From the NCBI GenBank assembly GCA_964602725.1, contig CAZRRZ010000003.1, positions 1-37,008 on the forward strand: 37,008 bases of DNA, given 5' to 3'. The stretch's first letter is position 1. Every line of letters begins with the position of its first letter. The translations under genes and the position numbers were made by a program. The stretch is from an uncultured Candidatus Saccharibacteria bacterium. Lineage in GTDB: Bacteria; Patescibacteriota; Minisyncoccia; Phycocordibacterales; PALSA-1337. The notes under the pieces are model-generated. The model was given only the letters and a program-made list of their open reading frames with translations, did not search any database and had not been told where the DNA came from. Positions 3,300 to 37,008 of the stretch are shown here, one piece after another.

Positions 3300-3300
3300 T

Positions 3301-9738: not shown

Positions 9739-9858
9739 AAAGTTGTCCCTTTATTTAACCAGAGATTTCTCTGCGGGTAGCTCTGGACCACTTGCCCGCC
9801 AGTATGACGATGAACCCTCACCGTCTTCATAATAGTCCTAGAAGCGTAGTTGCTGTAT

Positions 9859-9887
9859 AAAAAAGCCCCAGGGTTTCCCCCAGGGCT
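9859..9887 (-). terminator. Rho-independent terminator after the major capsid gene
   Basis: The minus-strand RNA AGCCCUGGGG-GAAA-CCCUGGGGCU forms 10 bp, including two G-U pairs that exist only on this strand. It has a GAAA tetraloop and is followed by UUUUUU. Confidence 0.7.
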
Positions 9888-9907
9888 CTAAACTTAAAGT
9901 TTACTTA

Positions 9908-12151: not shown

Positions 12152-14089
12152 CTATGCCGCTACAGGGGCATTAGTATTGGGGATAAGAGGAGATGTTGCG
12201 TTCGGCATTGGATTAGCCGTTGGCGTTGGTCCACCGGGTGCACCAGGTCCCATTGGAGGGACTACTGGTTGCGATCCTTGTATTAACGTTTGAACCTGAG
12301 AGAAAAACTTACGGAGCATGTCTGCTTTTTCTTCCTCAAGGTTAGCCGCAAGGTAGAGGTTGATGTATTGAACCACAAGAGTAGTTGCGAGTTGCAAATC
12401 AAGGAACGGATCCGGCATGGTGTAATCACCGTCTTCCACGATTTTATCCAAGATTTGGAATATGCGTTCTTCGGAAGCGTTATCAAGCTTCTCATTTTCT
12501 TCAAGGTCAGGAGCTTTCATCAGTCTTCGGCCTTCTTTGACCGTTAACATTCCAGCTTGAACCATTTCGGTGACGGTTTGAATTCTACCGGCTGGGGTTC
12601 TAGGCAAAGAAGACTCAGTAAAGCATTTGATGACAAATGGATTTTTCAAAAAGCCCATCTGTGGAAGATTGATTTCTTTTGTTCCATCCTTGTTTGGATA
12701 GACCGTTTGATACGAGCCAGTATCTTTTGCGATGTCCATGGCGGTATCGGTAATGAGATAAGCAAGTTCAATAGCTACGTTTTCATGTTTTTTTGACAGA
12801 TAAGCAAATCTATCCGAGTTGATGTCATCATAGCTTCGGATGGCTTCGCCGGAATTTAAACCAGCGGGCTTTTGTGCGGTTGCTTGCATATTGGACACGC
12901 CACATTGACGATATCCATATTCAATAAGCTTATCGCGCTCAGCATAAAGCTCGGGAGCATTACAAGGAGCAACCTCATAGCTAGGTTTTGTGCCGGAGTA
13001 GGTTACGATAACGCCAATTTCATTATTATTGTGCGCTTTGACTACCTTGCTGCCTTGTTCAATGAACACGCGAGGCACACCCACCAAAGAAATGGCTTTA
13101 GTGATGGTGTACATGATTCGATTGATAGAAAGCTGCGTACCAAATAGCTGAGTAGCAAGCCCTTGGCCCCAGAATCCTAAGAATGGGTCTGAGTAATGCA
13201 TGAATACGAAAGGAAATTTGGTTTTATGGTAGGGCTCGTCAAAAATAATGCCGCCCATGGTTGCAATTGTGTGTCTTCCGGGAGTATATCCGGGCGCTTC
13301 TGGATCCGGACCGCTTGCAAGCTTCCATCCTTCAACAACCAACACTTGATCGGCTGTTGTGCGTCCTGAATCTGACGCATTGTCAGGATAAGATTGAGGA
13401 GTAAGAGCTATTTCGGGAGCAGCTTTTGGGTTATTGGCAAGAAGCTTGTCCCTGTCTACAAGTTTCATCTGGATAAGTTGTTGAGGATCTCCATTGAGAG
13501 AATCATTGTCATCGACATACAAATCCGTTGTCATGACTCTATCAATGCAAACCTTGTCGTTATCACCGCGGTATACTTTTAAAGCACCGCACCCCATAAC
13601 AATTGCATCTCTTAAGATTTTGGCGATCTTTTCGTAGGCATCTGTTTGGTAAAACTCTCCGAGGATAAAACGGTTGAGTTCTTGCGCAAGATGACGCTGC
13701 TTATAATCGGCACCATCAGTAAGAAATTTGGGCGCCGGTTCATTTTGAGAGAGACGTGAGACCAATGTATCAGTAGCTGACTGTATAAGATTAAAAGTTG
13801 GACGATCGTCAGGAAGAGTTTTCGTGCGGTCCATTTTGGAAACGTTGGACCCTGCATATGAATATACGGACAACCCACAATAGAGACGGATATCCACGGC
13901 CAACTGACGCATCCGGTAAGTCTGATGAGTTTTAAGGTAAGCAAGGTTTCCGCACAGTTCGGCGGCGAGTTGTCTGTCATCTTCAGCCTTCCACCATTCA
14001 GCCATGAGTGAGGCACCATTTGTACCATCACTTGCCTGTGTTTTAAATTTAATCTTTTCTGGAAGCTTTTTGGCCTTGGTTATTTTCAC
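12152..14089 (-). CDS. Portal protein, 645 aa
   Basis: This large acidic ORF lies between terminase and scaffold. The GTG start at 14089 overlaps the upstream TGA (GTGA coupling). The C-terminus is Pro/Gly-rich. Confidence 0.7.
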   Translation of the reverse strand: MKITKAKKLPEKIKFKTQASDGTNGASLMAEWWKAEDDRQLAAELCGNLAYLKTHQTYRMRQLAVDIRLYCGLSVYSYAGSNVSKMDRTKTLPDDRPTFNLIQSATDTLVSRLSQNEPAPKFLTDGADYKQRHLAQELNRFILGEFYQTDAYEKIAKILRDAIVMGCGALKVYRGDNDKVCIDRVMTTDLYVDDNDSLNGDPQQLIQMKLVDRDKLLANNPKAAPEIALTPQSYPDNASDSGRTTADQVLVVEGWKLASGPDPEAPGYTPGRHTIATMGGIIFDEPYHKTKFPFVFMHYSDPFLGFWGQGLATQLFGTQLSINRIMYTITKAISLVGVPRVFIEQGSKVVKAHNNNEIGVIVTYSGTKPSYEVAPCNAPELYAERDKLIEYGYRQCGVSNMQATAQKPAGLNSGEAIRSYDDINSDRFAYLSKKHENVAIELAYLITDTAMDIAKDTGSYQTVYPNKDGTKEINLPQMGFLKNPFVIKCFTESSLPRTPAGRIQTVTEMVQAGMLTVKEGRRLMKAPDLEENEKLDNASEERIFQILDKIVEDGDYTMPDPFLDLQLATTLVVQYINLYLAANLEEEKADMLRKFFSQVQTLIQGSQPVVPPMGPGAPGGPTPTANPMPNATSPLIPNTNAPVAA

Positions 14090-17346: not shown

Positions 17347-17353
17347 AAATAAG

Positions 17354-17427
17354 CTGGAGGAGTTGGGATCGAACCAACCTATTCGGAATTAACAGTTCCG
17401 CGCAGTCACCCTGATTGCTATCCCCCA
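17354..17427 (-). tRNA. tRNA-Asn (anticodon GUU)
   Basis: Hand fold of the minus strand: acceptor UGGGGGA/UCCUCCA, D arm GCAA-UCAGGGUGA-CUGC, anticodon stem CGGAA/UUCCG with loop CUGUUAA, variable AAUAG, T arm GUUGG-UUCGAUC-CCAAC, discriminator G. U1-A72 and G73 match what I recall for E. coli tRNA-Asn. No CCA is encoded. Confidence 0.85.
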
Positions 17428-19723: not shown

Positions 19724-20146
19724 TCATGCGAATGGGTTGAATTTCAGTTTCTTATAACGCGGTACCTTCAGCCATATCTCTGTAGCTGTTTTTGTAATAT
19801 GAGAAAAGGTTGTTGTACCTTCTGGGACTAACATGGAACCAATCCCTTGTTTGCGGTGGTCCCTATGCACATGAATATAGTCTAAAACGTCTTCTCTGGA
19901 AACCGAAAAGCCTAGAACTACGTCCCTATCATCGGTCAATACAGCCAACCGAATAACAGAATCAGGCTTATTCATAAGGTTTTCTATGAATAGGTGGTAA
20001 TGCTTGAAGTATTCGTCTGAGTTAATCTTTTCAAAATCGGGATTTCCGAAGCGAAAACTTCTAAGCCATTTAGAAAATACTAAGGACTTGTATTGGGGTG
20101 GCAAATGCTTTGCGGGATATTTGTGGATGGAAACCGTATCGCTCAT
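19724..20146 (-). CDS. GNAT-like acetyltransferase-fold protein, 140 aa
   Basis: VVLGFSVSREDVLDYIHVHRDHRKQGIGSML fits GNAT motif A (R-x-x-G-x-G). ATGA coupling occurs at 20143-20146. Confidence 0.5.
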   Translation of the reverse strand: MSDTVSIHKYPAKHLPPQYKSLVFSKWLRSFRFGNPDFEKINSDEYFKHYHLFIENLMNKPDSVIRLAVLTDDRDVVLGFSVSREDVLDYIHVHRDHRKQGIGSMLVPEGTTTFSHITKTATEIWLKVPRYKKLKFNPFA

Positions 20147-22649: not shown

Positions 22650-23027
22650 ATGTTCGATGAAAACACCCCAATTCCATATGGACCTTTACAAGGCCAGAAA
22701 TTAAACGAGATTGATGACAGAATGAGTCTTCGTCATTGGCTAGCTCTTGCGCCAAATTTGTGCAAAACAGAATCAGACATGGAGATATTAAATTTCATTG
22801 GCAAGCATGTTGATGGAGAAGATTGGATATCATACAAGATGAAGGCGGTACTTAGCGATGTTTACGTGGCCCCATTTGGTAAATTCAAAGGAATGCCGCT
22901 ATCTAAAATCCCAAGAAATGAGCTTGATAGCTATTTGAAGTATCTTGAAAATAACCCAACTAAAGATGCTCTAGGAAAAGAATATCTCGCCAAAGGACGC
23001 GCTTATTTAGCCGTTAATTTGAATTAG
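22650..23027 (+). CDS. DUF3820-like protein (two FGK[FY]KG-type motifs), 125 aa
   Basis: A GGAGA RBS precedes the start. APFGKFKGMPLSKIPRNELDSYLKYL is joined by a degenerate first copy, IPYGPLQGQKLNEIDDRMSLRHWL. Confidence 0.5.
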   Translation: MFDENTPIPYGPLQGQKLNEIDDRMSLRHWLALAPNLCKTESDMEILNFIGKHVDGEDWISYKMKAVLSDVYVAPFGKFKGMPLSKIPRNELDSYLKYLENNPTKDALGKEYLAKGRAYLAVNLN

Positions 23028-23030
23028 TAA

Positions 23031-23474
23031 TCAATCTTTTCTCAAAAGCATCGCCCAATACGTTTGAGATCTGGGACCGTCTTTTGTCAAGTGCCCAAAA
23101 AGTGGCTCCCATTGTGGCATTAAATCAAAAACACGTTGAAGTTTGATGTCATGGTTGTTCCATTTAAGTGCCATTAAAGCATTAGGTTTTGTAACCCTAT
23201 GAGCTTCCTTCGCGGTTCCTTCAATTGTTTCTAATATTTCCTTAGTTGTATGATAACCATATCGCTTACTCATATTGGAATTTGGGCCGCAATTCATGTG
23301 TGGCGGATCAAAAACCACCAGGTCCCAATCTGTAGGAAATAATTTCCCTAGATTTGTCGTGTTTATACAATAATCCGGGTTTACTTCCATTCTCCTGTCT
23401 AAATATAAAGCAAGCGGATGTTTTTTGTTGAACCATATAGCTCTATTACCCGCTGATAAATCTAAAATTTTCAT
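23031..23474 (-). CDS. Small SAM-dependent methyltransferase (DPPH motif), 147 aa
   Basis: Motif I is ILDLSAGN and motif IV is LVVFDPPH. RVTKPNALMALKW is also typical. The target (DNA or RNA) is undetermined. Confidence 0.6.
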   Translation of the reverse strand: MKILDLSAGNRAIWFNKKHPLALYLDRRMEVNPDYCINTTNLGKLFPTDWDLVVFDPPHMNCGPNSNMSKRYGYHTTKEILETIEGTAKEAHRVTKPNALMALKWNNHDIKLQRVFDLMPQWEPLFGHLTKDGPRSQTYWAMLLRKD

Positions 23475-23863
23475 TTTTGAACTAGCTCAAAATGATACAG
23501 GTCTTGAAAGGTATCATCAGACGGATTTAGGTTTTGGTTAAAGTCTCCACCCCAACGTAACGTTACACCCATTCTATCAGCTGTCCCCATCACAAAACCT
23601 GCCACATAAATGAGCTTCTTGACATTTTTTATTTCGTAGGGAATTGGGCTGATGTCGATAGCAAGGGAAGGTTTGGAGTTATGTTTAGAATTGGGCCATG
23701 GCAGTTTTGACGCTCCGCTTGAATAGGCTTCGTTTTGAGCTAACTCATCTCTATGACCGCACACTACCATAAGCGGAATAGATTTAGAAACTTCTAGGAT
23801 AACCTTCCCTAAATCTTGATGAACAGTACTCAATTTATCTTTACTAGCTTGCGATAATTCCAT
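23471..23863 (-). CDS. Peptidase M15-family cell-wall hydrolase (endolysin candidate), 130 aa
   Basis: VVCGHRDELAQNEAY, SKHNSKPSLAID and WGGDF...DLYHFE fit the zinc-binding H/D/H layout of VanY/M15 L-Ala-D-Glu or D-Ala-D-Ala peptidases. There is no signal peptide. Confidence 0.75.
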   Translation of the reverse strand: MELSQASKDKLSTVHQDLGKVILEVSKSIPLMVVCGHRDELAQNEAYSSGASKLPWPNSKHNSKPSLAIDISPIPYEIKNVKKLIYVAGFVMGTADRMGVTLRWGGDFNQNLNPSDDTFQDLYHFELVQK

Positions 23864-23896
23864 ACACTTCCCCGGTATTGTTTTGAATTAATAATT

Positions 23897-24778
23897 ATGA
23901 CACATGACTATTCAGAAATCACCGGAGAAATTATGCTTCCGACTCATCCTAGCCCTAGTGTTCATGCTTTGGCTTTGCGCGATTCTAAACAAGAAAGCGC
24001 CTTAATTATTCAAGGACAATCATGGGAAGCTATGAAACAACAGGCTTCACTTCTTGTAAAATCCGGCTTTCTTCCAGAGAGTATTAAAACAACCGAACAA
24101 GCTATAGCGATCGCAATCAAAGGGCATGAGATTGGTATGCCAATGATGCAAGCTTTTTCACAGATTCATGTCATCAAAGGCAAACCAACTATATCAGCGG
24201 AGGGAATGAATGCGCTCATCAGAAGAAATTGTCCCGGTAGTAAAATTGAGATTATCAGAAACGATTCCTCTGTTTGTACTATCAAAGCAACCCGACCTGG
24301 CGAGCGAGCTTTTGAATACAGCTATACAATCGAGGATGCAAAACGGGCAGGTATTGCAGGAAATCCAAGTTGGTCCAAATACCCTGACGCTATGCTTTTC
24401 GCCCGTTGTATTTCAGCTATCGCCAGAAGGGTGTTTCCCGATTGCCTTTGCGGGATCTCCTACACCCCGGAAGAGCTCGGGGCCGAAGTTAACGAAGAAG
24501 GCGAAGTCATCAAAATCGAAGCAACCCAAGCGCAAGAAACCCAAAAAAAAGTTGGTGATACCGTGGAACATCCCATAGTGATCAAAAAGGACGAAAAATA
24601 TAATTCCAATGATCAAAAACATCGAGATTATCTAAAAAAAGAAGCGCTAGTATTTGGGATTTCAGACAACAGATCTTTATTGCAAATTAGCGAATATTGT
24701 AAAGACGTAGAGCTTACCCATCTAGGTGAAGCAATAGGGCATTACCTGGATGCAAGTATTCCACCCGAAGGAGGATAG
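23897..24778 (+). CDS. recT: RecT/Red-beta-like single-strand annealing protein, 293 aa
   Basis: GMPMMQAFSQIHVIKGKPTISAEGMNALIRR and WSKYPDAMLFARCISAIARRVFPDCLCGISYTPEELG fit RecT-family patterns. The ATG at 23933 has a better SD (GGAGAA) and may be the true start. Confidence 0.6.
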   Translation: MTHDYSEITGEIMLPTHPSPSVHALALRDSKQESALIIQGQSWEAMKQQASLLVKSGFLPESIKTTEQAIAIAIKGHEIGMPMMQAFSQIHVIKGKPTISAEGMNALIRRNCPGSKIEIIRNDSSVCTIKATRPGERAFEYSYTIEDAKRAGIAGNPSWSKYPDAMLFARCISAIARRVFPDCLCGISYTPEELGAEVNEEGEVIKIEATQAQETQKKVGDTVEHPIVIKKDEKYNSNDQKHRDYLKKEALVFGISDNRSLLQISEYCKDVELTHLGEAIGHYLDASIPPEGG

Positions 24779-25111
24779 ATGTTGAAGATATTGTTTGCGT
24801 TATTGCTTACGGGATGCGGATATACCGCAAGAAACAATGAGATTGTGGGCCAAGTAAAAAAAGTATTGAATGTGACTCCTCTTGTTTGTAGTGATTTTAC
24901 GGGTGTTGATATTAGTCTTGGCGTGATGAAAAACGGTGTTGGTTCTATGTCACATGAGGATAAAGAACTATACGTAGACAAAGATGAAAACATCAAAATA
25001 CTTAAAAAAGCTCTTGAAACTGGCGAGCTTGTATCTATTGTATATGACACTAAAAGACTTACGTTTTGCGTCCCAGATCAAATAGTTGTATCTGTGAAAA
25101 TAATTAAATAA
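24779..25111 (+). CDS. Lipoprotein, 110 aa
   Basis: A GGAGG RBS precedes the start. The signal peptide has a lipobox, MLKILFALLLTG|C. Confidence 0.65.
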   Translation: MLKILFALLLTGCGYTARNNEIVGQVKKVLNVTPLVCSDFTGVDISLGVMKNGVGSMSHEDKELYVDKDENIKILKKALETGELVSIVYDTKRLTFCVPDQIVVSVKIIK

Positions 25112-25121
25112 GGAGGTTGAT

Positions 25122-25304
25122 ATGTTAGTTAAAATTAAAGATGTGAACGGAAATGATATTCTTATTTCCAAAAATCATGTTGCATCGGTTCAACAAAACG
25201 TGGTAGCCAACAAGCCCACAACTATTGTGCAAATGGTGAATGGTGTTAATTTCGCGGTTCAACCATCATTTGCGGAAGTAGAAACACTTTTAAAGGGAGA
25301 ATAA
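25122..25304 (+). CDS. Small protein, 60 aa (FlbD-like sequence pattern)
   Basis: An AAGGAGG RBS precedes the start. MLVKIKDVNGNDILISKNHVASV...TTIVQMVNGVNFAVQPSFAEVETLL resembles the FlbD/SwrD-type pattern I recall. Confidence 0.5.
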   Translation: MLVKIKDVNGNDILISKNHVASVQQNVVANKPTTIVQMVNGVNFAVQPSFAEVETLLKGE

Positions 25305-25305
25305 A

Positions 25306-25635
25306 ATGAACACAAAAAGAGCAAAAGCATACCAATCAGTAAGAGATTACCTTAAAAAAAATCCTTCAGCGTCAATTGCAAAGGCTTGCGACGAACTTGG
25401 CGTTAAGCGCTATGACTATCACAACCATAAAAGCTACCTTGCAACTCATAAGAACAAGATTTCAAAGGAAACCGCTAAAAAAAACATTAAAGTGAGAATA
25501 GCTCCAAAGATGCCTAAAGAAATAAGGGGTGGTTTTGATACTTCGGTTTTGAAGTCCGTCAGAGCTATTCTTTCGATCCCTCATTTGTCTGATACGGATA
25601 AAGTTAACCTTCTCAATACCTGCGTGATTCATTGA
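25306..25635 (+). CDS. Putative HTH protein, 109 aa
   Basis: PSASIAKACDELGVKRYDY is HTH-like and the protein is basic. Confidence 0.45.
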   Translation: MNTKRAKAYQSVRDYLKKNPSASIAKACDELGVKRYDYHNHKSYLATHKNKISKETAKKNIKVRIAPKMPKEIRGGFDTSVLKSVRAILSIPHLSDTDKVNLLNTCVIH

Positions 25636-25901
25636 TTGATCGCAATGAATACGAAAGACTTCTTGTTCGTCACAAAAACAAGAATTTTGATGAGGTTGAG
25701 CAGGCCATACTTATGTGTGAAATGCGCTACCTCATCGAGTATATCGAAAAGCTTGAAGCTGTTGTTGATGCCGCGAAATCACTCAGGACATCACACAGAC
25801 TCGACGACGCGAATCCCAAGGACGGCGAATCATTTTACGTTCTCACCGTTGAAAGCCATAAGCGTCTTGTATCGGCGATAGAAAAACTGGAAGAACAATG
25901 A
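25632..25901 (+). CDS. Hypothetical helical protein, 89 aa
   Basis: The TTG start overlaps the upstream TGA. The start codon is uncertain. Confidence 0.45.
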   Translation: MIDRNEYERLLVRHKNKNFDEVEQAILMCEMRYLIEYIEKLEAVVDAAKSLRTSHRLDDANPKDGESFYVLTVESHKRLVSAIEKLEEQ

Positions 25902-26020
25902 TCAAAATACTCCTTTTTCCCTGGAACTTCATCAAGTGCGTATTCTCATGCTTTATGATTTTGGTTTTTCTTATTCAGATTGAGTTTCAAAATTGGCGGA
26001 AGAACAGGAAGAAACCATGA
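25898..26020 (+). CDS. 40-aa hydrophobic mini-protein (not in ORF track)
   Basis: ATGA coupling occurs at both ends (25898-25901 and 26017-26020). The translation is MIKILLFPWNFIKCVFSCFMILVFLIQIEFQNWRKNRKKP. Confidence 0.5.
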   Translation: MIKILLFPWNFIKCVFSCFMILVFLIQIEFQNWRKNRKKP

Positions 26021-26379
26021 AGATAGAAGAAATGCGCAAGATTGCAGACGAGAGAACTAAGGGTAAATGGGAGATAACTGGACCATCTAGTGATGACCCT
26101 AGATATACCGGAATAAATGTTGATGATAAATTTCTCATAATGACTCGTATTGATTACCAAGATAGTGGCGTTGCTATTGATGATGGAAAATTCATCGCCC
26201 TAGCTGCTAATACCTATGATGCTCTGCTTGATATTGCTGAGGCTTCAAAAGCCATTACAAATATTTATTATAAATTTAATTCTACGATGAGCCTAAAAGA
26301 ATTTTGGAGTCTTATGCAGGAATATTGTGATGAATATGGGCTATTGAAAATGCGCATAAGAACACTGGATGAATTATGA
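26017..26379 (+). CDS. Ead/Ea22-like protein, 120 aa
   Basis: The track start at 25993 is TTG. The ATG at 26017 has AGGAAG upstream. RTKGKWEITG and DDGKFIALAANTYDALLDI fit the Ead/Ea22 pattern. Confidence 0.5.
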   Translation: MKIEEMRKIADERTKGKWEITGPSSDDPRYTGINVDDKFLIMTRIDYQDSGVAIDDGKFIALAANTYDALLDIAEASKAITNIYYKFNSTMSLKEFWSLMQEYCDEYGLLKMRIRTLDEL

Positions 26380-26636
26380 CTCAAGAAGACAGAGAAGAAT
26401 TATTACTTCAAATTGAAAAGCTTCGTGGACGGTTTGATATTATGGTTCCGGTGGCTATTCTTCAAAGAGGGCTTCACAGACTTTTCTCTGAGATTGACGC
26501 ACTGGATGAACATACTGACCAACTCGATACGGCTTGCTACGCCCTTGATGAAAAGTTGTCAGAAGTAAAGGCCGCGTATACAGAGCTTCAAAAAGAGTGT
26601 CAAACATTTAAGGATAGACTCTATCCAGATTTATAG
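26376..26636 (+). CDS. Hypothetical helical protein, 86 aa
   Basis: ATGA coupling links it to the upstream gene. Its stop codon overlaps the 3' end of the antisense tRNA. Confidence 0.5.
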   Translation: MTQEDREELLLQIEKLRGRFDIMVPVAILQRGLHRLFSEIDALDEHTDQLDTACYALDEKLSEVKAAYTELQKECQTFKDRLYPDL

Positions 26637-26707
26637 TGGCGGATGGATTTGAACCACCGACTTTCCGCTCATGAAACGGACGCTCTGCCCGGCTGAGCTA
26701 CGCCACC
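26634..26707 (-). tRNA. tRNA with CAU anticodon (elongator Met or Ile2-type; not initiator)
   Basis: Minus-strand fold: GGUGGCG-UA-GCUC-AGCCGGGCA-GAGC-G-UCCGU-UUCAUGA-GCGGA-AAGUC-GGUGG-UUCAAAU-CCAUC-CGCCACU-A. The 1-72 pair is G-U. The anticodon stem has no GGG/CCC run, and no CCA is encoded. Confidence 0.85.
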
Positions 26708-26952
26708 GTTGCAACTAGAGCCCCGCGCGACTAAGGCCCAGCTTTTCTCGTCGCAACCCTTCTAGATGGTAGCTGACCTACGCCTGTGCATGTCTCCAGA
26801 AATACTGTTGGTGCGCTGTCACTATGCCCGTCGACATATAGATCGCCTACGTTCACTCCAACAGCCCTCCGTAGGCTAGTTATTTCAGCGTTGGCCCACC
26901 TCGAACGGTATTACTACCTCGGTGAGCCTTCCCATGCCGTCTAGTTGCAACC
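26708..26952 (-). ncRNA. Unclassified structured RNA element (245 nt) abutting tRNA(CAU) +1
   Basis: The track shows no ORF on either strand. My hand count gives 134/245 G+C. A 12-bp closing helix pairs 26940-26951 with 26708-26719. The hairpin at 26893-26928 has a GUAA tetraloop and a tandem G.A/A.G beside a 4-nt bulge. Several further helices exist, and G-U pairs plus GNRA loops occur only in the minus-strand transcript. Confidence 0.5.
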
Positions 26953-27014
26953 TTATTTATAATCATTTAAGCTTGATCACACCAGATCCAAATTGATTTT
27001 CAAGGGGTTCATGT

Positions 27015-27218
27015 ATGTATTTTCGCATCCACAGAGACATCGATGGTCATGCTTTTAGAATTCGTAAAGTTGTTCTTGAGCTCTTTAGAGACGATGGAAC
27101 TTTAGTAGATCGACGACGTATGTTCGCCGGACTATTCTTCGCAAAACGCCTTGCAAGAAAACAAGCGCGAATGGCAAAAATTGGCAAAATCATGGTAGCG
27201 TGTAGCTATAAATTATGA
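27015..27218 (+). CDS. Small basic protein, 67 aa
   Basis: An AAGGGG RBS precedes the start. The protein is Arg/Lys-rich and is the first gene of the accessory operon. Confidence 0.5.
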   Translation: MYFRIHRDIDGHAFRIRKVVLELFRDDGTLVDRRRMFAGLFFAKRLARKQARMAKIGKIMVACSYKL

Positions 27219-27331
27219 TTCCATCTTCGGAATATTTAGTACTCATTTACATGATTATAAGCGCCTATTTATTCCCTGTTTTTGCTATTGCTACATTTTT
27301 ACTGTTAAAGTATGGAGATAGGAAAGATTAA
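27215..27331 (+). CDS. 38-aa single-TM mini-protein (not in ORF track)
   Basis: ATGA coupling occurs at 27215-27218 and TAATG coupling at 27329-27333. The translation is MIPSSEYLVLIYMIISAYLFPVFAIATFLLLKYGDRKD. Confidence 0.5.
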   Translation: MIPSSEYLVLIYMIISAYLFPVFAIATFLLLKYGDRKD

Positions 27332-28275
27332 TGCGTCACGAAAGTCATGACAGGGATAAGTTTCACGTCGTTACGATGATTTCTAACCCAGTAAGGTATG
27401 AATCAAGATATGAGCTTTATAAAGTCTTTGCAGCAAAGATGGCTAGTGCCGGTGTCAACCTCACAACCGTGGAATTGCAACTTGGGGATAGACCTTTTGC
27501 TATTACGGATAGAGATTGTGCGCGCCATATTCAGCTCAGAGGATGGGACGAATTATGGCACAAAGAGAACTGTCTCAACATTGCGATTCAAAGCTTGCCT
27601 TCAGATTGGGAGACCGTGGCTTGGATCGACGCTGACGTGGAATTTATCCGTCCCGATTGGGTGGAAGAAACAATCAATCAACTCCAAGTCTATCAAGTTG
27701 TCCAAATGTTCGAAACCGCCATTGACCTTGGTCCATCCGGAAAAACCATTGCAACCCACAAATCTTTCATGAGTCAATATCTGGAGAATAAATCAATGCA
27801 TCCAGAAACAAGCTATCAAGAATGGCATCCGGGTTTTGCTTGGGCCGCAAGGAGAGAGGCTATTGATGGAATGGGGCAACTTTACGAGAGAGCAATCCTT
27901 GGAGCAGGAGACCGCCATATGGCTCTGGCGTTTGTTGGAAAGGCAGAGTGCTCCTTTGTCCATGACATGCAATCAGAGTATGCTCAAGATATCCTTAGGT
28001 TCCAAGATCGATGTCACCATACGATCCGCAAGGATGTCGGAGTTGTGCCAGGCACTATTGTCCACAATTGGCACGGCAAAAAGCGGGATAGACGTTATTT
28101 CGACCGATGGCAAATCCTTATCAATAACGATTACAAACCGCACCGAGATATTAAAAAAGATTCATTTGGTGTATTCAATTTTGTAGACGATCATTCGCCA
28201 CGCTTCATCAGGCTTCGCGACGAGATACGTCATTATTTCCGACAAAGAAATGAAGACAGCGTGGATCTCGAGTGA
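27331..28275 (+). CDS. Glycosyltransferase (GT-A-like, DxD = WIDADVEF), 314 aa
   Basis: FHVVTMISNPVRY, a DAD motif after a beta-strand, and HNWHGKKRDRRYFDRWQIL fit a pattern I recall from phage and virus glycosyltransferases. Confidence 0.6.
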   Translation: MRHESHDRDKFHVVTMISNPVRYESRYELYKVFAAKMASAGVNLTTVELQLGDRPFAITDRDCARHIQLRGWDELWHKENCLNIAIQSLPSDWETVAWIDADVEFIRPDWVEETINQLQVYQVVQMFETAIDLGPSGKTIATHKSFMSQYLENKSMHPETSYQEWHPGFAWAARREAIDGMGQLYERAILGAGDRHMALAFVGKAECSFVHDMQSEYAQDILRFQDRCHHTIRKDVGVVPGTIVHNWHGKKRDRRYFDRWQILINNDYKPHRDIKKDSFGVFNFVDDHSPRFIRLRDEIRHYFRQRNEDSVDLE

Positions 28276-28394
28276 TGTTTGCACTTCTTCTATTATTTGG
28301 TGTGGTTACGATTTTACCATCAATTATTTTGATGTTTATCACCTGGTTTTTTGATTATCTCCATAACGAATTTTTTGACAAAATTAGATTTTAA
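28275..28394 (+). CDS. 39-aa single-TM mini-protein (not in ORF track)
   Basis: It overlaps the glycosyltransferase stop (TGATG). The translation is MFALLLLFGVVTILPSIILMFITWFFDYLHNEFFDKIRF. Confidence 0.5.
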   Translation: MFALLLLFGVVTILPSIILMFITWFFDYLHNEFFDKIRF

Positions 28395-28447
28395 AATCGA
28401 TCGCTGTTAAAATAGCAACTGTTCACTAAGTTTTACAAGGAGGTAAA

Positions 28448-29530
28448 ATGCTTAAGTCATTAGTGTTGGTTTTTTGCATCGGGTCATCTATTGCCCTGGC
28501 GTCTACATCAAAATTCCCCATCATAAAAGGAGAAAACGGAAAAAGATACCATACGGGTCTGCTTCATAAGCCACAAGCTTACAAAGGACTCGGAGAAACA
28601 CACGTCAAACTTGCAGATTGTGAAAATCTTCCAGAAGAATTTGATTTGCGAAAACTCGGAACTGTTACAGCTATCAAAGATCAAGGATCTTGTGGGTCAT
28701 GTTGGAGCTTTTCTAAAACAGCTTCTCTTGAATCCGCGATTTTGGCAAACGGCGGCAAGTCCATGGACCTGTCAGAAAAAGAATTACTCACATGCGATAG
28801 AAATAACTATGGATGTGACGGCGGTTTGCTCAACCAAAAAGAATACCAAGTAGTTCACGGTCAAGGACTTGAGTCTGATTTCCCATATTCGCCTTCAGAC
28901 GGACCATGCAAAAGCATTCCTGTTGCCGTTAAAGCAACTGAGTTTGTAATGGTTGGATCTTCTAACAGATCTCCAAACCTCAAAGAAGTGAAATGCGCGC
29001 TGTATAAATCTCACACCGTGCCATGGATAACAGTCGCCGCAGAAGGAAACTGGGGTCAAGCGCCTAGTACAGAAGACACTATGTTTAGGTCTTGCGGACG
29101 CGGTCAAACCAACCACGCCATCGGTATCGTGGGATGGAAAAAAATCAACGGCAAGGAAGGTCTGATCATCAGAAATTCTTGGGGCATGGGTTGGGGAGCA
29201 AAAGGCTACGCTGTTATGCCGCTCGGTTGCGATAACCTCGGTGAAGAAGTTGCATACATCATGACGGACGCGATGCCATGTAAACCACCCGTTTTTCAAC
29301 TTCCAGCGCATATAGAAATCTCTCCGAATGTAGAAGTTATGCTTGGAGTTAAAGAGCAATCTGGCGTGGAATATACCTGGTATTCAGCTGATAAAGAGAT
29401 TGGCAAAGGGTCTATGATCTATGTCATTCCATCTGAAGACACAATCTATAAACTCGTAGGAAAAACCGCTTGCGGTACTGTTGAAAGTTCAGTAAAAATT
29501 AGCGTGATTAAGGCCAGCCAAGCGCTTTAA
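28448..29530 (+). CDS. Secreted papain-family (C1) cysteine protease with C-terminal beta-domain, 360 aa
   Basis: An AAGGAGG RBS precedes the start. The signal peptide is MLKSLVLVFCIGSSIALA. The mature N-terminus reads LPEEFDLRKLGTVTAIKDQGSCGSCWSFS (Gln/Cys), followed by NHAIGIVGW (His) and IIRNSWGMGWGAKGY (Asn/Trp). About 90 extra C-terminal residues follow. Confidence 0.9.
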   Translation: MLKSLVLVFCIGSSIALASTSKFPIIKGENGKRYHTGLLHKPQAYKGLGETHVKLADCENLPEEFDLRKLGTVTAIKDQGSCGSCWSFSKTASLESAILANGGKSMDLSEKELLTCDRNNYGCDGGLLNQKEYQVVHGQGLESDFPYSPSDGPCKSIPVAVKATEFVMVGSSNRSPNLKEVKCALYKSHTVPWITVAAEGNWGQAPSTEDTMFRSCGRGQTNHAIGIVGWKKINGKEGLIIRNSWGMGWGAKGYAVMPLGCDNLGEEVAYIMTDAMPCKPPVFQLPAHIEISPNVEVMLGVKEQSGVEYTWYSADKEIGKGSMIYVIPSEDTIYKLVGKTACGTVESSVKISVIKASQAL

Positions 29531-29540
29531 TTAATGAAGA

Positions 29541-29591
29541 AGGCGGTCGCCCTGGACAACTCATTGTGAGTAGCGCCGCCTTTTTTATTTT
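29541..29591 (+). terminator. Rho-independent terminator (possibly bidirectional)
   Basis: AGGCGG(U)CGC pairs with GCGCCGCCU and is followed by UUUUUUAUUUU. It lies between convergent operons, and a second 9-bp hairpin sits at 29606-29657. Confidence 0.7.
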
Positions 29592-29663: not shown

Positions 29664-29849
29664 TTATGGTGTTGGGACGCCTAAAGCCTCTGCAATAACA
29701 GAAACCATATAATCGTCAACTTTGTTGCTGGTATCTTTTGCCAATTCAGCAAGATAAGCCACTAAAGCTTTCTTTCCTTCATCAACAACGTTTCCAGATA
29801 ACAATTGCTTCAATACAAAAATCAATACTTGCTCAAGAACTTTATCCAT
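29664..29849 (-). CDS. Small amphipathic protein, 61 aa
   Basis: The track ORF was trimmed to the ATG at 29849, which overlaps the upstream stop by 8 nt. It is the last gene of the minus-strand operon. Confidence 0.45.
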   Translation of the reverse strand: MDKVLEQVLIFVLKQLLSGNVVDEGKKALVAYLAELAKDTSNKVDDYMVSVIAEALGVPTP

Positions 29850-30150
29850 AAATTTCTCCCGCGATTTTTGCCTCGATTCTTTTAATGCGACACACTGCAT
29901 TATCAATATCGATGGCGGTTTTGTGGAAATCAGTTTCAAGCTTAACATGCTTTTCAGCCAACTCGGTAATGCCATCAGTAAATTTTAACACTTCCGAAAG
30001 CTGACCTTTGATGTAAGAAATATCTGAGGCAAATTTTAGATAATTAGCAATTAACGCTGATAAAACACCAAAAACAAATGTCATCAAGTTTAAAATCCAC
30101 GGGTATGTATCAAAAATATCAAGCACGTTAATCCTGATGAGCGGATTCAA
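29842..30150 (-). CDS. N-terminally membrane-anchored coiled-coil protein, 102 aa (i-spanin- or holin-like)
   Basis: The TM segment ILNLMTFVFGVLSALIANYL is followed by a helical, charged domain. Confidence 0.45.
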   Translation of the reverse strand: MNPLIRINVLDIFDTYPWILNLMTFVFGVLSALIANYLKFASDISYIKGQLSEVLKFTDGITELAEKHVKLETDFHKTAIDIDNAVCRIKRIEAKIAGEIYG

Positions 30151-30298
30151 TTATCTCGTTAAATTGTTCTTCTGTTTTTCCAAAATGGTTTGTTGCAACA
30201 CCCTCGATAGATTTCCGGCATACACATGTCTTAGGATGTCCGGATGCTTGAATCGAAAAAATTGCCAAAAGTCCTTGAGCTATTTTTTTATCAATCAT
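30128..30298 (-). CDS. Small protein, 56 aa (not in ORF track)
   Basis: ATGA coupling links it to the fibre gene stop (30295-30298). The translation is MIDKKIAQGLLAIFSIQASGHPKTCVCRKSIEGVATNHFGKTEEQFNEIIESAHQD. Confidence 0.4.
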   Translation of the reverse strand: MIDKKIAQGLLAIFSIQASGHPKTCVCRKSIEGVATNHFGKTEEQFNEIIESAHQD

Positions 30299-32070
30299 AT
30301 TAAGTTCACCCAGCTTCCTGCTTCATAGCCTCTAAATTTTCCAAGGTCAGTGTTGTATATCATCATACCATCAACTGCGGTTAATGCGGCTTCCTCAGCA
30401 TTAGTTAATCGTGGCAACAGGAATGCTCTATCTGTTCCGCCAATTTCGAGTCCTACACTGGCGTTGCTTACTTTTCCTGTAGGAGTGTTGATAGCCAATT
30501 TGTACATTGAGTTATCAATGTCTGAAGCAATCTTTACGCCCCAATGGTTGGTTGCAAAAACACCTGCACCGCCGACTTCATGATAAAAGCCAGTCGCGTT
30601 CGTGGTAGTTCCGGTATATCCGGCGTTTATCAATAGAGAGTTAACACCGCGCCATTCTCCAACAGTAAAATCATCCATAAAAATGGCGCCAGCCGTCAGG
30701 GCATTTAGTTGGTCCATTTGACCATGTCCATGACATTGACCAGCAAAAGCAACCATGTTTACTCCTAAACCAGATGGCCCGAGAGCAACGCTAGATCCAG
30801 CGTTTCCAAAGTTTACATCCGGGCTAAGGATGTTCATTAAAACATCTGTGCCCGTGATTGCTGTTGAATCCGGTGTGCTGTAAGCGGTAAACAATACGTG
30901 TTGACTTTGAATTGTTTGTCCGCTTTGAGCTACCATGGTGCCGCTAACACTAAAGCGAACCCCGTCAATACTTGCGCCAGCTTCTTTTCCGTCCGCGGTT
31001 AAACCGCCTAATTGCAAAACAGAAAGATTAGTTGAAGTGCCAGTGACTTGACTCAAACTTCCTGAATATAAAGTTACATCGGCGTCGCCGCCCGCAATGG
31101 TTGGATTTGAAGAAAATCCGGATACGGTACCATGTGAGGTTGTTATGTTGGTATTAAACGCAAATCCGTTCATGTAGCCAGTTGGCGACATCGTGGTAAC
31201 CGTTCCGCCGCAACTGAAACCATTGAACCCAGAGTTTCCTAAAAAAGTGGTAATGGTCGGATTTAGGTTAAAACCCTGGTAGTTGTTGTTGTTTCTGATT
31301 GACGCAATTTGTGGGTTTGCTGCGTAACTGTTCCAACCATCAATCTCACATTCGATGTTTGCAAAATCACCGAAAATAGTAGAGAACGTGGTTCCAGTTG
31401 AGGTTGTAGCCGCTGAATGCGCGTGCGGTTGAAAAATATAACCCTGAAATCCGCGAGATAAATTGACGTTATCGTTAATGTCGCCAAAAATGAAATAACC
31501 GTAATATCCTCCAACATCGATAGGATCAGTTCCGTTTCCTATGTTTGAATAAGAACTGTTTAATGTCAAAGTTCCGGTGTCGCCGGTTCCAGTAAGTGTA
31601 AATCCAGAACTAATAAGAGTCCCTAGTGATCCGTTAGTGCCGATAGCAAATCCAGTACTAGTTGGGTCAACAGTTGCTTGAACGTTGAGAAAATTATATG
31701 TGGACGTTGGAGATGCAAGCGTAGGGATCAAATTTGCTTGTAGGTTATGAACAGTATAGCCACCAGTGTTGTCCACTGATTGGTCTAAAATTACATTCAT
31801 GCCCAAGGTGTTAGTGTAATAATTCCATCCAGGGAGGACACTTAAATCACCAGTGGGATCAACCCAAAATGCAAAGCTTGGAGAATTTCCAGGCACAGGA
31901 AGTAATGGAGCAGAGTTTGTGATGGTAGTTATTCCGCCACCGCTTACAATGCTTATTCCCGTTCCCGCATTTATAAACTGGTTTGCAGACGTATCGCCGT
32001 TGATAGAAAGAATGTTTCCAGTACCGCCCCCACCGCCTTCGACTGGGAGAAAAATATACCCGCTGCTCAT
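30295..32070 (-). CDS. Tail fibre / receptor-binding protein 2, 591 aa
   Basis: The N-terminus GGGGGTGNILSINGDTSANQFINAGTGISIVS is shared with fibre 1. The body is beta-rich and G/T/S/N-rich. The C-terminus reads AFLLPRLTNAEEAALTAVDGMMIYNTDLGKFRGYEAGSWVNLI. Confidence 0.75.
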   Translation of the reverse strand: MSSGYIFLPVEGGGGGTGNILSINGDTSANQFINAGTGISIVSGGGITTITNSAPLLPVPGNSPSFAFWVDPTGDLSVLPGWNYYTNTLGMNVILDQSVDNTGGYTVHNLQANLIPTLASPTSTYNFLNVQATVDPTSTGFAIGTNGSLGTLISSGFTLTGTGDTGTLTLNSSYSNIGNGTDPIDVGGYYGYFIFGDINDNVNLSRGFQGYIFQPHAHSAATTSTGTTFSTIFGDFANIECEIDGWNSYAANPQIASIRNNNNYQGFNLNPTITTFLGNSGFNGFSCGGTVTTMSPTGYMNGFAFNTNITTSHGTVSGFSSNPTIAGGDADVTLYSGSLSQVTGTSTNLSVLQLGGLTADGKEAGASIDGVRFSVSGTMVAQSGQTIQSQHVLFTAYSTPDSTAITGTDVLMNILSPDVNFGNAGSSVALGPSGLGVNMVAFAGQCHGHGQMDQLNALTAGAIFMDDFTVGEWRGVNSLLINAGYTGTTTNATGFYHEVGGAGVFATNHWGVKIASDIDNSMYKLAINTPTGKVSNASVGLEIGGTDRAFLLPRLTNAEEAALTAVDGMMIYNTDLGKFRGYEAGSWVNLI

Positions 32071-32446: not shown

Positions 32447-34156
32447 TTATAGATTCAAATATGTTGTAAATGTTGTGTGATATCCGCCGCCAGCCGTCAA
32501 ACCTGAACCAGAAGCCCAATTTGAAGCGTCAAATTTGGTAACAACAGCACTTCCATCACTGGAAACTTTTAGGATTCCGGCAATTTCAATGCCGCCACCA
32601 TAAATGCTCATGCAAGATTGATTAGGGCCGCCACCCGTATAACAAAAACGTGTTGGAAAAGTAGATGTCGGAATGGTTGCGTTGAGGGTTGCTGTTGCCG
32701 TTACGGTGTCAGATGAAAAGTATCCAGTAACAACTTTGTTATTTCTTTCAAGAACAAGAGTTGCTGTTGCTCCAGCTAATGCGCCACCTAAAGAGATGCC
32801 GGTTATTGCGCCATAACTTTCGTAGACACTAACCACTCTCCAATCGGCTGGAGTTGCAGGAGTAGCAACCATAGCCTCGAGTATCACTTGGCCAATTTGA
32901 ATGACCGCGTCACCTTGAGAGCCGGTAAATGCTGTGCTGTAAAGAATTGGATTGCTATCAGCCGCTCTAATTGTGAGATCAAAGTTTGTTGTGTTCTCAA
33001 GAGTCCAAACTTGACCCTTAGCCACACCAGTAGAAGGCAAATCAACATTTCTGGCAGCGCTTAGATCAAAAATTTGAATGTGATTATCAGACGAAACAAG
33101 CGTTGTGGTACCAGCGCCTTCAGTAGCCCGAACATTTCCAGTTACAGTTGGTGAGTTTGTTGTCCAACTTACTCCTACGGCTGTTCCGGAATCTGCGACA
33201 AGAACCTGTCCATCAGTTCCAACAGGGACTCTTGCGTTAACAGTTGAAAATCCAACTAAATCACCTTTGGTTGTTAAGGGTGACAAAGCGTTGAAAGCAG
33301 GATTTGCGGTTGTTTGACCAGTACCGCCATTTGCAATCGGTAGAGCGCCAGTAACTTTTGCCGTTAAATCAATTGTACTGTTTGCAATTTTAGAGTTTGT
33401 AACAGCAAGGTTTGCGATAGTAGCCGCAACTGATCCAGGTCCGGTTGCCGTTACGTCTCCAGTTAAAGCAGTGATATAGCTGCCAGCGGCTTGCTTAGAG
33501 TTAAACGTTGTCCAGTCTGTTGATGACAAATAACCGTTTTGACTTCCGTTAGCAACTTGCTGAGAAATCGAAGTACCAGAGCCAATAACAGATCCAGTGC
33601 CACCCGTTATGGTGATTCCATCTGTTCCAACATCCGTTAAGTTTCCAATCGTCAAAGCAGCTTGTTTGCCGTTGAATGTCGACCAATCTGTTGAAGAAAG
33701 GTAACCGTTGTGCGTGCTATCAGCCACTTGTTGACTTATGCTTGTACCCGAACCGATTACAGATCCGGTTCCGCCAGTGATAGTTATGCCGTCAGTGCCA
33801 ACATCCGTAAGGTTGCCGATTGTGAGAGCAGCTTGCTTTGCGTTAAAGGTGCTCCAGTCTGTGCTTGAAAGATAACCGTTGTGAGTTGAATCAGCGACAT
33901 GTTGAGAAATACTTGTGCCCGCTCCAACTACCGCACCAGTTCCGCCGGTGATGGTAATCCCATCGGTTCCGACATCAGTCAGGTTTCCATATGATACTGT
34001 GCTGTTAATTGTGTGCGTATTAGCGACGCTGTTAACCGATATTCCTGTTCCACTAGCAATAAACTGAGCGGCTGTTGTATCGCCGTTGATCGATGTGATT
34101 CCACCGCCACCGCCGCCGCCACCGCTGAGTGCTGGATATGTAGCAAAAAATGACAT
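32447..34156 (-). CDS. Tail fibre / receptor-binding protein 1, 569 aa, with 3 x 57-aa tandem repeats
   Basis: The N-terminus GGGGGGGGITSINGDTTAAQFIASGTGISVNS is shared with fibre 2. The repeats contain NGYLSSTDWSTFN(A/G/S)K, a fibre-repeat-like motif. Confidence 0.8.
   Translation of the reverse strand: MSFFATYPALSGGGGGGGGITSINGDTTAAQFIASGTGISVNSVANTHTINSTVSYGNLTDVGTDGITITGGTGAVVGAGTSISQHVADSTHNGYLSSTDWSTFNAKQAALTIGNLTDVGTDGITITGGTGSVIGSGTSISQQVADSTHNGYLSSTDWSTFNGKQAALTIGNLTDVGTDGITITGGTGSVIGSGTSISQQVANGSQNGYLSSTDWTTFNSKQAAGSYITALTGDVTATGPGSVAATIANLAVTNSKIANSTIDLTAKVTGALPIANGGTGQTTANPAFNALSPLTTKGDLVGFSTVNARVPVGTDGQVLVADSGTAVGVSWTTNSPTVTGNVRATEGAGTTTLVSSDNHIQIFDLSAARNVDLPSTGVAKGQVWTLENTTNFDLTIRAADSNPILYSTAFTGSQGDAVIQIGQVILEAMVATPATPADWRVVSVYESYGAITGISLGGALAGATATLVLERNNKVVTGYFSSDTVTATATLNATIPTSTFPTRFCYTGGGPNQSCMSIYGGGIEIAGILKVSSDGSAVVTKFDASNWASGSGLTAGGGYHTTFTTYLNL
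33476..33988 (-). repeat. Three in-frame 171-nt tandem repeats inside the fibre 1 gene
   Basis: The units lie at 33818-33988, 33647-33817 and 33476-33646. The peptides are nearly identical (GNLTDVGTDGITITGGTG.V.G.GTSISQ.VA....NGYLSSTDW.TFN.KQAA) but many synonymous codons differ. Confidence 0.9.
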
Positions 34157-36619: not shown

Positions 36620-37008
36620 TTAAAAAGGCCTCTAAATGGGTTCCATCCGGCATCTTCATTTTTTTGCGCTTTTTTGCTAGTTCCAATCGCCCCGGTTGAT
36701 TTCATTTCTGGTGCTGGCGGTTTTTTTGGTGGTTCAGGATATTTATATTTAGGTGGTTCATGAACAAGACCGAGTCTTCTTAGGTTTGGCGCTTTTTCTT
36801 CCAAGTTGTTATCAAAGTGCTTATTCATAACTTTCCAAACTTCTTTTCGCGATTCATCAGTATCAGCCCAAGAAGGTAAAAGACCAGCAACCTGTCTCAT
36901 TTTAGCTTCATCAGATTTATTGACGCCTAAACGTTCAGCAAGAGCGTTGATTTGAATATCTCTATTACGTTCAAAATAATTTCGCAAAGTTTCTCCAGGA
37001 AGTGCGGT
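36616..37008 (-). CDS. C-terminal part of the junction-spanning gene (see 1..1576)
   Basis: The frame is open to the window edge. 36954-37008 duplicates 1-55, so the unique coding part is 36616-36953. The C-terminus is Pro/Lys-rich (EPPKYKYPEPPKKPPAPE). Confidence 0.8.
   Translation of the reverse strand, partial: TALPGETLRNYFERNRDIQINALAERLGVNKSDEAKMRQVAGLLPSWADTDESRKEVWKVMNKHFDNNLEEKAPNLRRLGLVHEPPKYKYPEPPKKPPAPEMKSTGAIGTSKKAQKNEDAGWNPFRGLFK
36954..37008. repeat. Terminal direct repeat, copy 2
   Basis: Exact copy of nt 1-55. Confidence 0.95.

Follow-up and report, generated by a model that had tools for sequence, protein, structure and literature searches.

The window analyzed here, a 37,008-nucleotide stretch of DNA that makes up the whole of contig CAZRRZ010000003.1, is a complete phage genome of about 36,953 bp that closes into a circle, and the gene located at positions 28448–29530 of its plus strand encodes a C1A papain-family enzyme with an intact active site. 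The sequence gives good support to the prediction that the phage makes this protease as an active C1A endopeptidase, which leaves the cytoplasm of a Gram-negative host by export. As for its role, we give slightly better than even credence to the reading in which the gene product is an active, Sec-exported, disulfide-stabilized, cathepsin-L-like C1A endopeptidase of bacterial origin that would cleave envelope or surface proteins late in infection.

A preliminary description had presented the gene as a phage-borne one for an exported papain-family protease with the catalytic landmarks in order, the LPxxFDxR mature N-terminus, a region of only about 40 residues in place of an I29 propeptide, and a beta-rich C-terminal module of about 90 residues. 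Pfam classification, profile and structure comparisons, and the phage genes on the contig bear all of this out.

Catalytic Domain of the Protease

The open reading frame (ORF) starts with ATG at 28448 and ends with a stop codon at 29528–29530, giving a protein of 360 amino acids (aa). By sequence reading, a strong ribosome-binding site (RBS), AAGGAGG (28437–28443, plus strand), lies 4 nt 5′ of the start. Residues 61–273 (28628–29266) form the C1A catalytic domain, as indicated by Pfam, matches to PDB structures, Foldseek, residue invariance, and covariation of cysteines. In Pfam the protease matched PF00112 (Peptidase_C1) only, over residues 61–260 and profile positions 1–205 of 220, with a score of 139.2 bits, where 20.7 is the cut-off, and E = 2.7e-40, plus a sub-threshold match to PF03051. 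No NCBIfam family matched it, and the only match in PHROGs was the weak one to phrog_16701 (E = 9e-6).

The motif DQGSCGSCWSFS holds Q79 of the oxyanion hole and the nucleophile C85, the catalytic histidine is H223 in NHAIGIVGW, and the Asn-Ser-Trp motif IIRNSWGMGWGAKGY corresponds to N243-S244-W245. The mature N-terminus reads NLPEEFDLR (L61-P62). The residues Q79, C85, H223, and N243 align with the catalytic residues of papain and the cathepsins in canonical order. In our alignment of 101 homologues with 34–82% identity, Q79, C82, C85, H223, N243, S244, and W245 are all invariant. Glu267 is conserved in 98 of the 101 sequences; this residue may correspond to Glu245 in the S2 pocket of cathepsin B, a likeness based on a manual register that we take as a lead only.

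Among solved structures the best match of the single sequence (PDB, phmmer) had E = 2.3e-31, and with the family profile E reached 1.5e-52; the closest relatives by sequence were procaricain, caricain, ervatamin, and cathepsin K. The AlphaFold2 model built on the 101-homologue alignment (pLDDT 94.1, pTM 0.90) is confident everywhere except the leader, and its comparison by Foldseek reveals a two-lobed papain fold. The catalytic domain superposes on the mature C1A structures of calotropain, Der p 1, and cathepsin K with TM scores of 0.87–0.89 and an rmsd of 1.9–2.3 Å at about 30% identity. The gene is under purifying selection: in comparison with the closest homologue (P0002), dN/dS for the whole gene is 0.14, with values of 0.04 for the catalytic domain and 0.20 for the C-terminal immunoglobulin-like (Ig-like) domain.

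Signal Peptide, Cysteine Pairs, and Predicted Export

Residues 1–18 (28448–28501, plus strand) look like a signal peptide, in which MLK is followed by the 15-residue hydrophobic core SLVLVFCIGSSIALA and by A-L-A↓S. There is no lipobox, and by inspection the leader is of the Sec/SPI type; its pLDDT of 56–59 in the model is as expected for a cleaved leader. A hydrophobic N-terminus is present in 99/101 homologues. In 25/101 the leader carries a lipobox, such as ...FSCSK or ...LGCSKK, which is often followed by a linker rich in Pro and Ser.

Four cysteine pairs covary in the alignment (C58–C183, C116–C154, C216–C261, and C278–C342), and the sequences that lack them differ from pair to pair; C58 and C183, for example, are both present in 95 homologues and both absent in six. 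A fifth pair, C82–C123, is invariant (101/101). The pairs C82–C123, C116–C154, and C216–C261 would form the canonical papain disulfides (22–63, 56–95, and 153–200 in papain numbering). Five cysteine pairs, taken together with the signal peptide or lipobox leaders, argue strongly for export to an oxidizing compartment, and the enzyme is probably sent to the periplasm or the envelope.

Three formats of the protease were found in the family: a soluble one with the Ig-like domain, one with an N-terminal lipid anchor and the Ig-like domain, and one with a C-terminal transmembrane (TM) anchor. All three would keep the enzyme at the cell envelope, so its lasting association with the envelope is reasonably supported.

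N-Terminal Extension

Between the signal peptide and L61 there are only 42 residues (residues 19–60; 28502–28627, plus strand), as against about 100 aa in an I29 prodomain with its ERFNIN and GNFD helices, and no I29 match was found in the protease by Pfam at E ≤ 1. This extension resembles a truncated propeptide. In the alignment made with the family profile it falls on the final 33 residues (67–99) of the procathepsin K propeptide, and its TGL on MTGL ("yhTGLl" versus "KMTGLK" of procathepsin K). T36-G37-L38 is conserved in 91, 101, and 98 of the 101 homologues, respectively, and is the most conserved noncatalytic motif of the family. The extension is ordered in the model (pLDDT 92–97) and contains three short strands.

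The Foldseek comparison points in the same direction. The proenzymes 1cjl (procathepsin L) and 1pci (procaricain) align over 254 columns at 2.5 Å and 259 columns at 2.9 Å, while mature C1A enzymes align over about 220 columns, some 30 fewer, at similar rmsd. [quoted passage not shown] We infer that the extension is a truncated propeptide which keeps the cleft-crossing TGL segment and is pinned by a C58–C183 disulfide.

C-Terminal Ig-Like Domain

The last 87 residues (274–360; 29267–29527, plus strand) form an Ig-like beta-sandwich with conserved C278–C342 and Y309-x-W311. In a separate AlphaFold2 model of this domain it is all-beta, with seven strands and a pLDDT of 92.9. Among 41 homologous domains, 24 matched Ig_7 in Pfam at E ≤ 1 (best 1.5e-6), 20 matched I-set, and 16 matched PKD_6; the domain of the window protease itself scored 15 bits on Ig_7, below the cut-off of 27.3. 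With the domain profile, matches were obtained to the Ig repeats of GhpA, the grappling-hook protein of Aureispira (1.5e-33), as well as to phage tail Ig proteins and Hoc. Foldseek returned the GhpA Ig repeats, titin, and myelin-associated glycoprotein with TM scores of 0.66–0.75.

We considered whether the domain is common to other phage proteins and rejected this: in the window and nine related loci the profile matches the protease alone and no structural protein of the phage or its relatives. By its sequence relationships the domain would hold the protease on a ligand of the cell surface or envelope. A subgroup of the family (P0107–P0113) has no Ig-like domain and ends instead in a linker rich in Pro followed by a C-terminal TM helix. 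In two of its members, P0110 and P0113, a Cys-rich insert of about 40 aa precedes this anchor.

Phage Genome

Bases 1–55 of the window are repeated exactly at 36954–37008, so the assembly is circularly closed. The GC content is 42.8%. Family matches identified genes for the portal protein (12152–14089), the large terminase, a tail protein with an FN3-like domain, RecT (23897–24778), a DNA methyltransferase, RusA, and a VanY/M15-like endolysin (23471–23863, minus strand; phrog_465, E = 3.9e-25). Two tRNA genes are also present on the minus strand: tRNA-Asn(GTT) at 17353–17427, directly 3′ of the large terminase gene, and tRNA-Met(CAT) at 26634–26707, inside the otherwise plus-strand early block.

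The phage belongs to an uncultured lineage without a cultured relative. Against 50,697 GenBank phages, megablast of 17 kb of the window found no related DNA, and tblastn found no relative of the portal or major capsid proteins. PHROGs searches of about 40 window ORFs revealed no integrase or repressor, and lysogenic conversion is for this reason not favored.

The missing cultured relative, together with the largely unannotated neighboring ORFs, leaves some room for the idea that there is no working phage protease here at all, and that the product is an inactive binding protein or the gene belongs to a host on a misassembled or misclassified contig. We regard this as scarcely credible. None of the catalytic residues varies among the homologues, and dN/dS is as low as 0.04 in the catalytic domain, while the contig closes on itself and carries portal, large terminase, tail, endolysin, and RecT genes. 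Moreover, at least five other independent phage-like contigs have the protease at the same kind of locus.

Some further features of this genome deserve mention. Acetyltransferase-like genes were found at 2961–3362 and 19724–20146, both on the minus strand (phrog_1249 and phrog_7861), and one of the two overlaps the beginning of the tail gene of 1038 aa. Two tail-fiber-like paralogues (30295–32070 and 32447–34156, minus strand) have a poly-glycine N-terminus followed by ...SINGDT.A.QFI..GTGIS, and their N-terminal module recurs in the related loci L089 and L107 with 60–69% identity across some 55 aa. A gene for a predicted lipoprotein (24779–25111, plus strand; 110 aa, lipobox LLTGC) without a family match begins immediately 3′ of the RecT stop codon; its product might serve in superinfection exclusion or be part of outer-membrane lysis.

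Gene Neighborhood

The protease gene is the last one of a plus-strand block comprising RecT, small ORFs, a gene for a 314-aa protein with a DxD motif, and the protease itself. The late operon is convergent with it and ends with the two tail-fiber-like genes and a pair of small genes. Between them, 3′ of the protease stop codon, lies a hairpin (29533–29589) flanked by an A-tract and a T-tract, with a folding energy of –25.4 kcal/mol (z = –4.6; none of 200 shuffled sequences folded as well). It is likely a bidirectional intrinsic terminator separating the protease gene from the convergent late genes.

The upstream 314-aa gene (27331–28275, plus strand; DxD motif in WIDADVEF) has no match of its own in Pfam, PHROGs, NCBIfam, or the PDB. 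Its 3179 homologues come mostly from contigs of phage size, and a few of them carry PF00535 or PF05637. By these relationships it is probably a GT-A-type glycosyltransferase of an unannotated family that is frequent in phages. In L167 it is conserved along with the protease (42% identity). Joint capture of the two genes was rejected, as BLASTP found no similarity (E = 0.28) between the 314-aa protein and the glycosyltransferase encoded beside a cellular copy of the protease. An ORF of 40 aa between these two window genes (28272–28394, plus strand) consists almost entirely of one hydrophobic helix; it may have arisen by chance or encode a small membrane protein. No co-encoded inhibitor, such as chagasin (I42), or other annotated partner was found by Pfam among 20 window ORFs, a scan that took in every plus-strand gene from 22650 to 28394 apart from ORFs of fewer than 90 aa that lie unlisted between RecT and 27015.

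In the relatives, glycosyltransferase or acetyltransferase genes are often neighbors of the protease; acetyltransferase genes lie near it in L165 and L170 as well. Such putative surface-modifying genes, the adjacent tail-fiber genes, an Ig-like domain of a kind typical of surface binding, and the exported or envelope-anchored state of the enzyme (a quarter of the homologues are lipoproteins) would all suit a role in receptor destruction or superinfection exclusion. Here the protease would trim an outer-membrane protein, pilus, flagellum, or S-layer that serves as receptor, so that later phages could not adsorb and progeny would not be lost on debris. We consider this quite unlikely, for a periplasmic enzyme cannot reach surface epitopes without a secretion route, and cellular orthologues exist outside any phage context.

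The small-gene pair convergent with the protease consists of a gene whose product has a TM helix and a coiled coil (29842–30150, minus strand) and a gene of about 60 aa (29664–29852, minus strand; phrog_2738/402, function unknown). For the latter the mechanical ORF is 29664–29975, and the start at 29852 results from trimming to an internal Met. Homologues of the pair lie 0.1–1.9 kb from the protease in eight other loci on six contigs (L083, L088, L094, L096, L163/L164, and L167/L168), for instance at 11179–11709 in L163, 7916–8451 in L167, and 7976–8194 in L088; in these three loci the copies of the TM/coiled-coil gene have weak matches to phrog_5225 (function unknown). These genes could be candidates for holin-type or lysis-regulator functions. 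In every phage locus where such genes are detectable, the endolysin lies 0.25–4.6 kb and the small TM genes 0.1–1.9 kb from the protease.

The closest association is seen in L088, where the protease gene (9980–11116) starts 254 bp after an amidase endolysin gene on the same strand. The order on one strand is tail fiber, small TM protein, 139-aa ORF, amidase endolysin, 89-aa ORF, and protease, and an HNH endonuclease gene is inserted in this cassette on the opposite strand. In the L088 protease a Pro-rich linker and a C-terminal TM helix replace the Ig-like domain. A bolder reading sees the enzyme as a latent periplasmic protease which is triggered by the holin and cuts the proteins linking outer membrane and wall, or other envelope proteins, and would thereby replace or assist spanins in this phage lineage. 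The enzyme would be exported early and kept latent by the tethered mini-propeptide and the oxidizing periplasm until holin lesions let cytoplasmic reductant reach the catalytic thiol. We hold this third-step variant of lysis to be possible but unlikely.

Proximity to lysis genes also brings to mind a peptidoglycan peptidase, that is, a second endolysin of the signal-peptide type that cuts the peptide stems of the cell wall. Some phage proteins with C1-like domains in the viral structure library BFVD are indeed annotated "Peptidoglycan binding-like" or "N-acetylmuramidase (fragment)", but these match the protease with only 17–19% identity, whereas the enzymes that match it best, by sequence and by structure, are C1A endopeptidases that cleave proteins, with about 30% identity. 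It has no CHAP or NlpC/P60 match, and the phage already has an endolysin of the M15/VanY type, which makes this explanation very improbable.

Distribution, Transfer, and Host

A search of 5.8 billion proteins returned 240 relatives of the protease in at least 120 clusters. The best 120 of the 240 are full-length with 35–89% identity, and many lie on contigs of 30–47 kb. The window has 11 proteins in common with the locus L165, 7 with L166, and fewer with L163/L164 and L167/L168; with the IMG/VR contigs L089 and L097 it has structural genes in common. In L165 the protease is 52% identical and the 10 other shared proteins are 35–67% identical; this agreement indicates a long residence of the gene in phages. 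The closest homologue, P0002, has 89% aa identity and 84% nucleotide identity over 934 nt. Altogether, the gene appears to be a mobile accessory gene at the tail-fiber/lysis junction of siphovirus-like phages of about 35–47 kb that infect Gram-negative hosts.

Cellular copies with the same architecture also exist. One is located in a Bdellovibrionales metagenome-assembled genome (MAG) among housekeeping genes (FGGY kinase, M17 aminopeptidase, transketolase, sigma factor, Ser/Thr kinase), and others in three syntenic contigs of a related bacterium, likewise in cellular surroundings. In a neighbor-joining tree without support values, which should be read as a sketch, the cellular copies are nested in a mostly phage-borne radiation. 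Two observations were made around individual copies: L002 (homologue P0019, presumed Bdellovibrionales-type) has a serpin gene at 9759–10925, about 7 kb from the chromosomal protease, and in L001 an IS200-type transposase gene lies 2.5 kb upstream of the protease.

The preliminary description had also called papain-like enzymes typical of eukaryotes and an exported one in a tailed phage unusual. These two statements did not hold up. C1A relatives are encoded in 591 of 600 candidate stretches from GTDB species genomes across many bacterial and archaeal phyla, in agreement with PMC10380794, and in 543 of 600 IMG/VR stretches, among them both giant viruses and phage-sized contigs. Rarity in tailed phages was overstated as well: short bacterial C1A peptidases have been acquired by Myoviridae and Siphoviridae (PMC10380794), UniProt Peptidase_C1 entries in BFVD include those of uncultured Caudovirales and Streptomyces phage Shady, and PHROG 16701 exists. 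Given how common C1A enzymes are in bacteria, and that tailed phages are on record as having them, the donor was bacterial and not eukaryotic. In the literature we found no characterized phage-encoded secreted C1A protease.

The host may be a member of Bdellovibrionota, as weakly suggested by the only close cellular homologues that were found, the Gram-negative lipoprotein signals, and the similar GC content (42.8% in the phage versus 43–45% in Bdellovibrionales-type loci, which is weak host evidence). Tetranucleotide usage speaks neither for nor against this: an Anaerolineae locus ranked first, and the Bdellovibrionales-type loci took the 15th to 39th places of 146. The GC content of the relatives ranges from 40% to 61%, and the wider family is thus not confined to one host group.

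Possible Role of the Protease

If the enzyme is exported from the infected cell, then we can ask: What would it cleave there? In the reading that we prefer, the protease would be made as a mini-zymogen whose extension keeps the TGL segment, pinned by C58–C183, and the Ig-like domain would anchor it on a ligand of the cell surface or envelope. Late in infection it would then cleave envelope or surface proteins of the infected cell, which is the weakest step, and this cleavage would aid progeny release, remove receptors, or both. Late envelope cleavage is favored because of the steady association with lysis and tail-fiber genes, the backbone-like divergence of the L165 protease, and the lack of detected lysogeny genes.

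Several points weigh against it. In cathepsin L, loss of the alpha1 and alpha2 helices of the propeptide lowers inhibition more than 33,000-fold (PMC7720491), so the extension may act as a structural strap instead of inhibiting the enzyme; the position of TGL in the cleft and the C58–C183 bond are both inferred. In the window itself the endolysin gene is as far as 4.6 kb from the protease. The assignment of a host is tentative. The contig of P0002 shares no other gene with the window, which is cargo-like behavior and means that the protease gene moves between phages. The junction of tail-fiber and lysis genes is a classic hotspot for cargo ("moron") genes, and a position there is no proof of a role in lysis. 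Finally, the chromosomal copies sit among housekeeping genes, from which it follows that the enzyme works without any phage.

The last three points make a role in nutrient acquisition or host fitness a serious rival. On this account the gene is a copy of a secreted digestive protease of the host, possibly a predatory member of Bdellovibrionota, which would boost the breakdown of extracellular or prey protein, supply amino acids during infection, and have no part in lysis. Same-architecture orthologues on chromosomes (the Bdellovibrionales MAG and the three related contigs), exchange of the gene between unrelated phages, its self-contained nature with its own RBS and terminator, and the recurrence of cargo-like glycosyltransferase and acetyltransferase genes beside it all speak for such cargo. 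However, the three formats of the enzyme are all cell-associated and fit poorly with a freely diffusing digestive enzyme, and the absence of a detected integrase or repressor among the ORFs searched makes a long-term benefit to the host less likely. The neighbor-joining tree also places most of the family diversity on phage-sized contigs, and the host assignment is weak. On balance we consider the cargo role rather unlikely, though it deserves to be kept in view.

If late envelope action is true, then proteolysis would join endolysins, spanins, disruptins, and LysB among the means by which phages breach or remodel the Gram-negative envelope, and nature would provide in this enzyme a case of a C1A propeptide that is both minimal and tethered. 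Even as mere cargo, the family still represents a well-sampled bacterial secreted cathepsin-like gene, with at least 120 clusters, that moves among phages and Bdellovibrionales-type chromosomes. The protease is a compact, disulfide-rich, Ig-tagged C1A scaffold without a prodomain.

Comparison with Known Systems

The phage protease has the same fold, Gln/Cys/His/Asn site, and LP..D.R N-terminus as cathepsins K and L, papain, caricain, and Der p 1, and the three canonical disulfides are common to all of them. In contrast to cathepsins and papain, it has no ERFNIN/GNFD helical prodomain (I29), it adds the C58–C183 pair and the C-terminal Ig-like domain, and it is provided with a bacterial Sec signal or a lipobox, being neither lysosomal nor vacuolar.

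A similar domain order is presumably present in Cwp84 of Clostridioides difficile, which we take to be a secreted C1A protease with a beta-sandwich ("lectin-like") domain after the catalytic domain. Cwp84 acts on the S-layer precursor, a cell-envelope protein. Unlike the window protease, it comes from a Gram-positive source and is not borne by a phage, and its propeptide is full-length and accompanied by cell-wall-binding repeats.

Among phage proteins, a prohead (capsid maturation) protease can be ruled out. Prohead proteases act in the cytoplasm, have their genes between those for the portal and the major capsid protein, and are of the S49/S78/U9/U35 types, whereas the window protease belongs to C1A, carries an export signal, and lies 14 kb from the portal/capsid region. 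An endolysin of the CHAP or NlpC/P60 type is likewise ruled out by the lack of such Pfam matches, the signal peptide, and the location. Spanins Rz/Rz1 and mycobacteriophage LysB are envelope proteins encoded beside holin and endolysin which act after wall degradation, and o-spanins are outer-membrane lipoproteins. The protease of L088 similarly follows an endolysin gene, but this is a functional analogy only: there is no kinship in sequence or fold, and proteolysis differs from membrane fusion or ester cleavage.

Baculovirus V-CATH and the cathepsins of giant viruses are also virus-encoded C1A enzymes, and V-CATH aids the breakdown of the host after its death. The best BFVD match to the protease was "cathepsin L2" of Tupanvirus (E = 3.4e-17), while V-CATH fragments matched weakly. 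Unlike the window protease, these enzymes are of eukaryotic origin, have full prodomains, and occur in eukaryotic viruses (PMC10380794).

Short bacterial C1A peptidases of the xylellain type resemble the window protease in that they too have no full prodomain and often possess signal peptides (PMC10380794). The likeness is by description, as xylellain itself was not among the 60 best PDB sequence matches. Phage C1A entries of BFVD share the fold at a distant 14–20% identity. What sets the window family apart from both groups is its Ig-like domain and TGL extension, along with the fifth and sixth cysteine features. The protease thus represents a new and well-populated subfamily of bacterial-type secreted C1A peptidases, already recorded in tailed phages, which is distinguished by a probable truncated and tethered propeptide, an Ig-like tail, and three alternative anchors.

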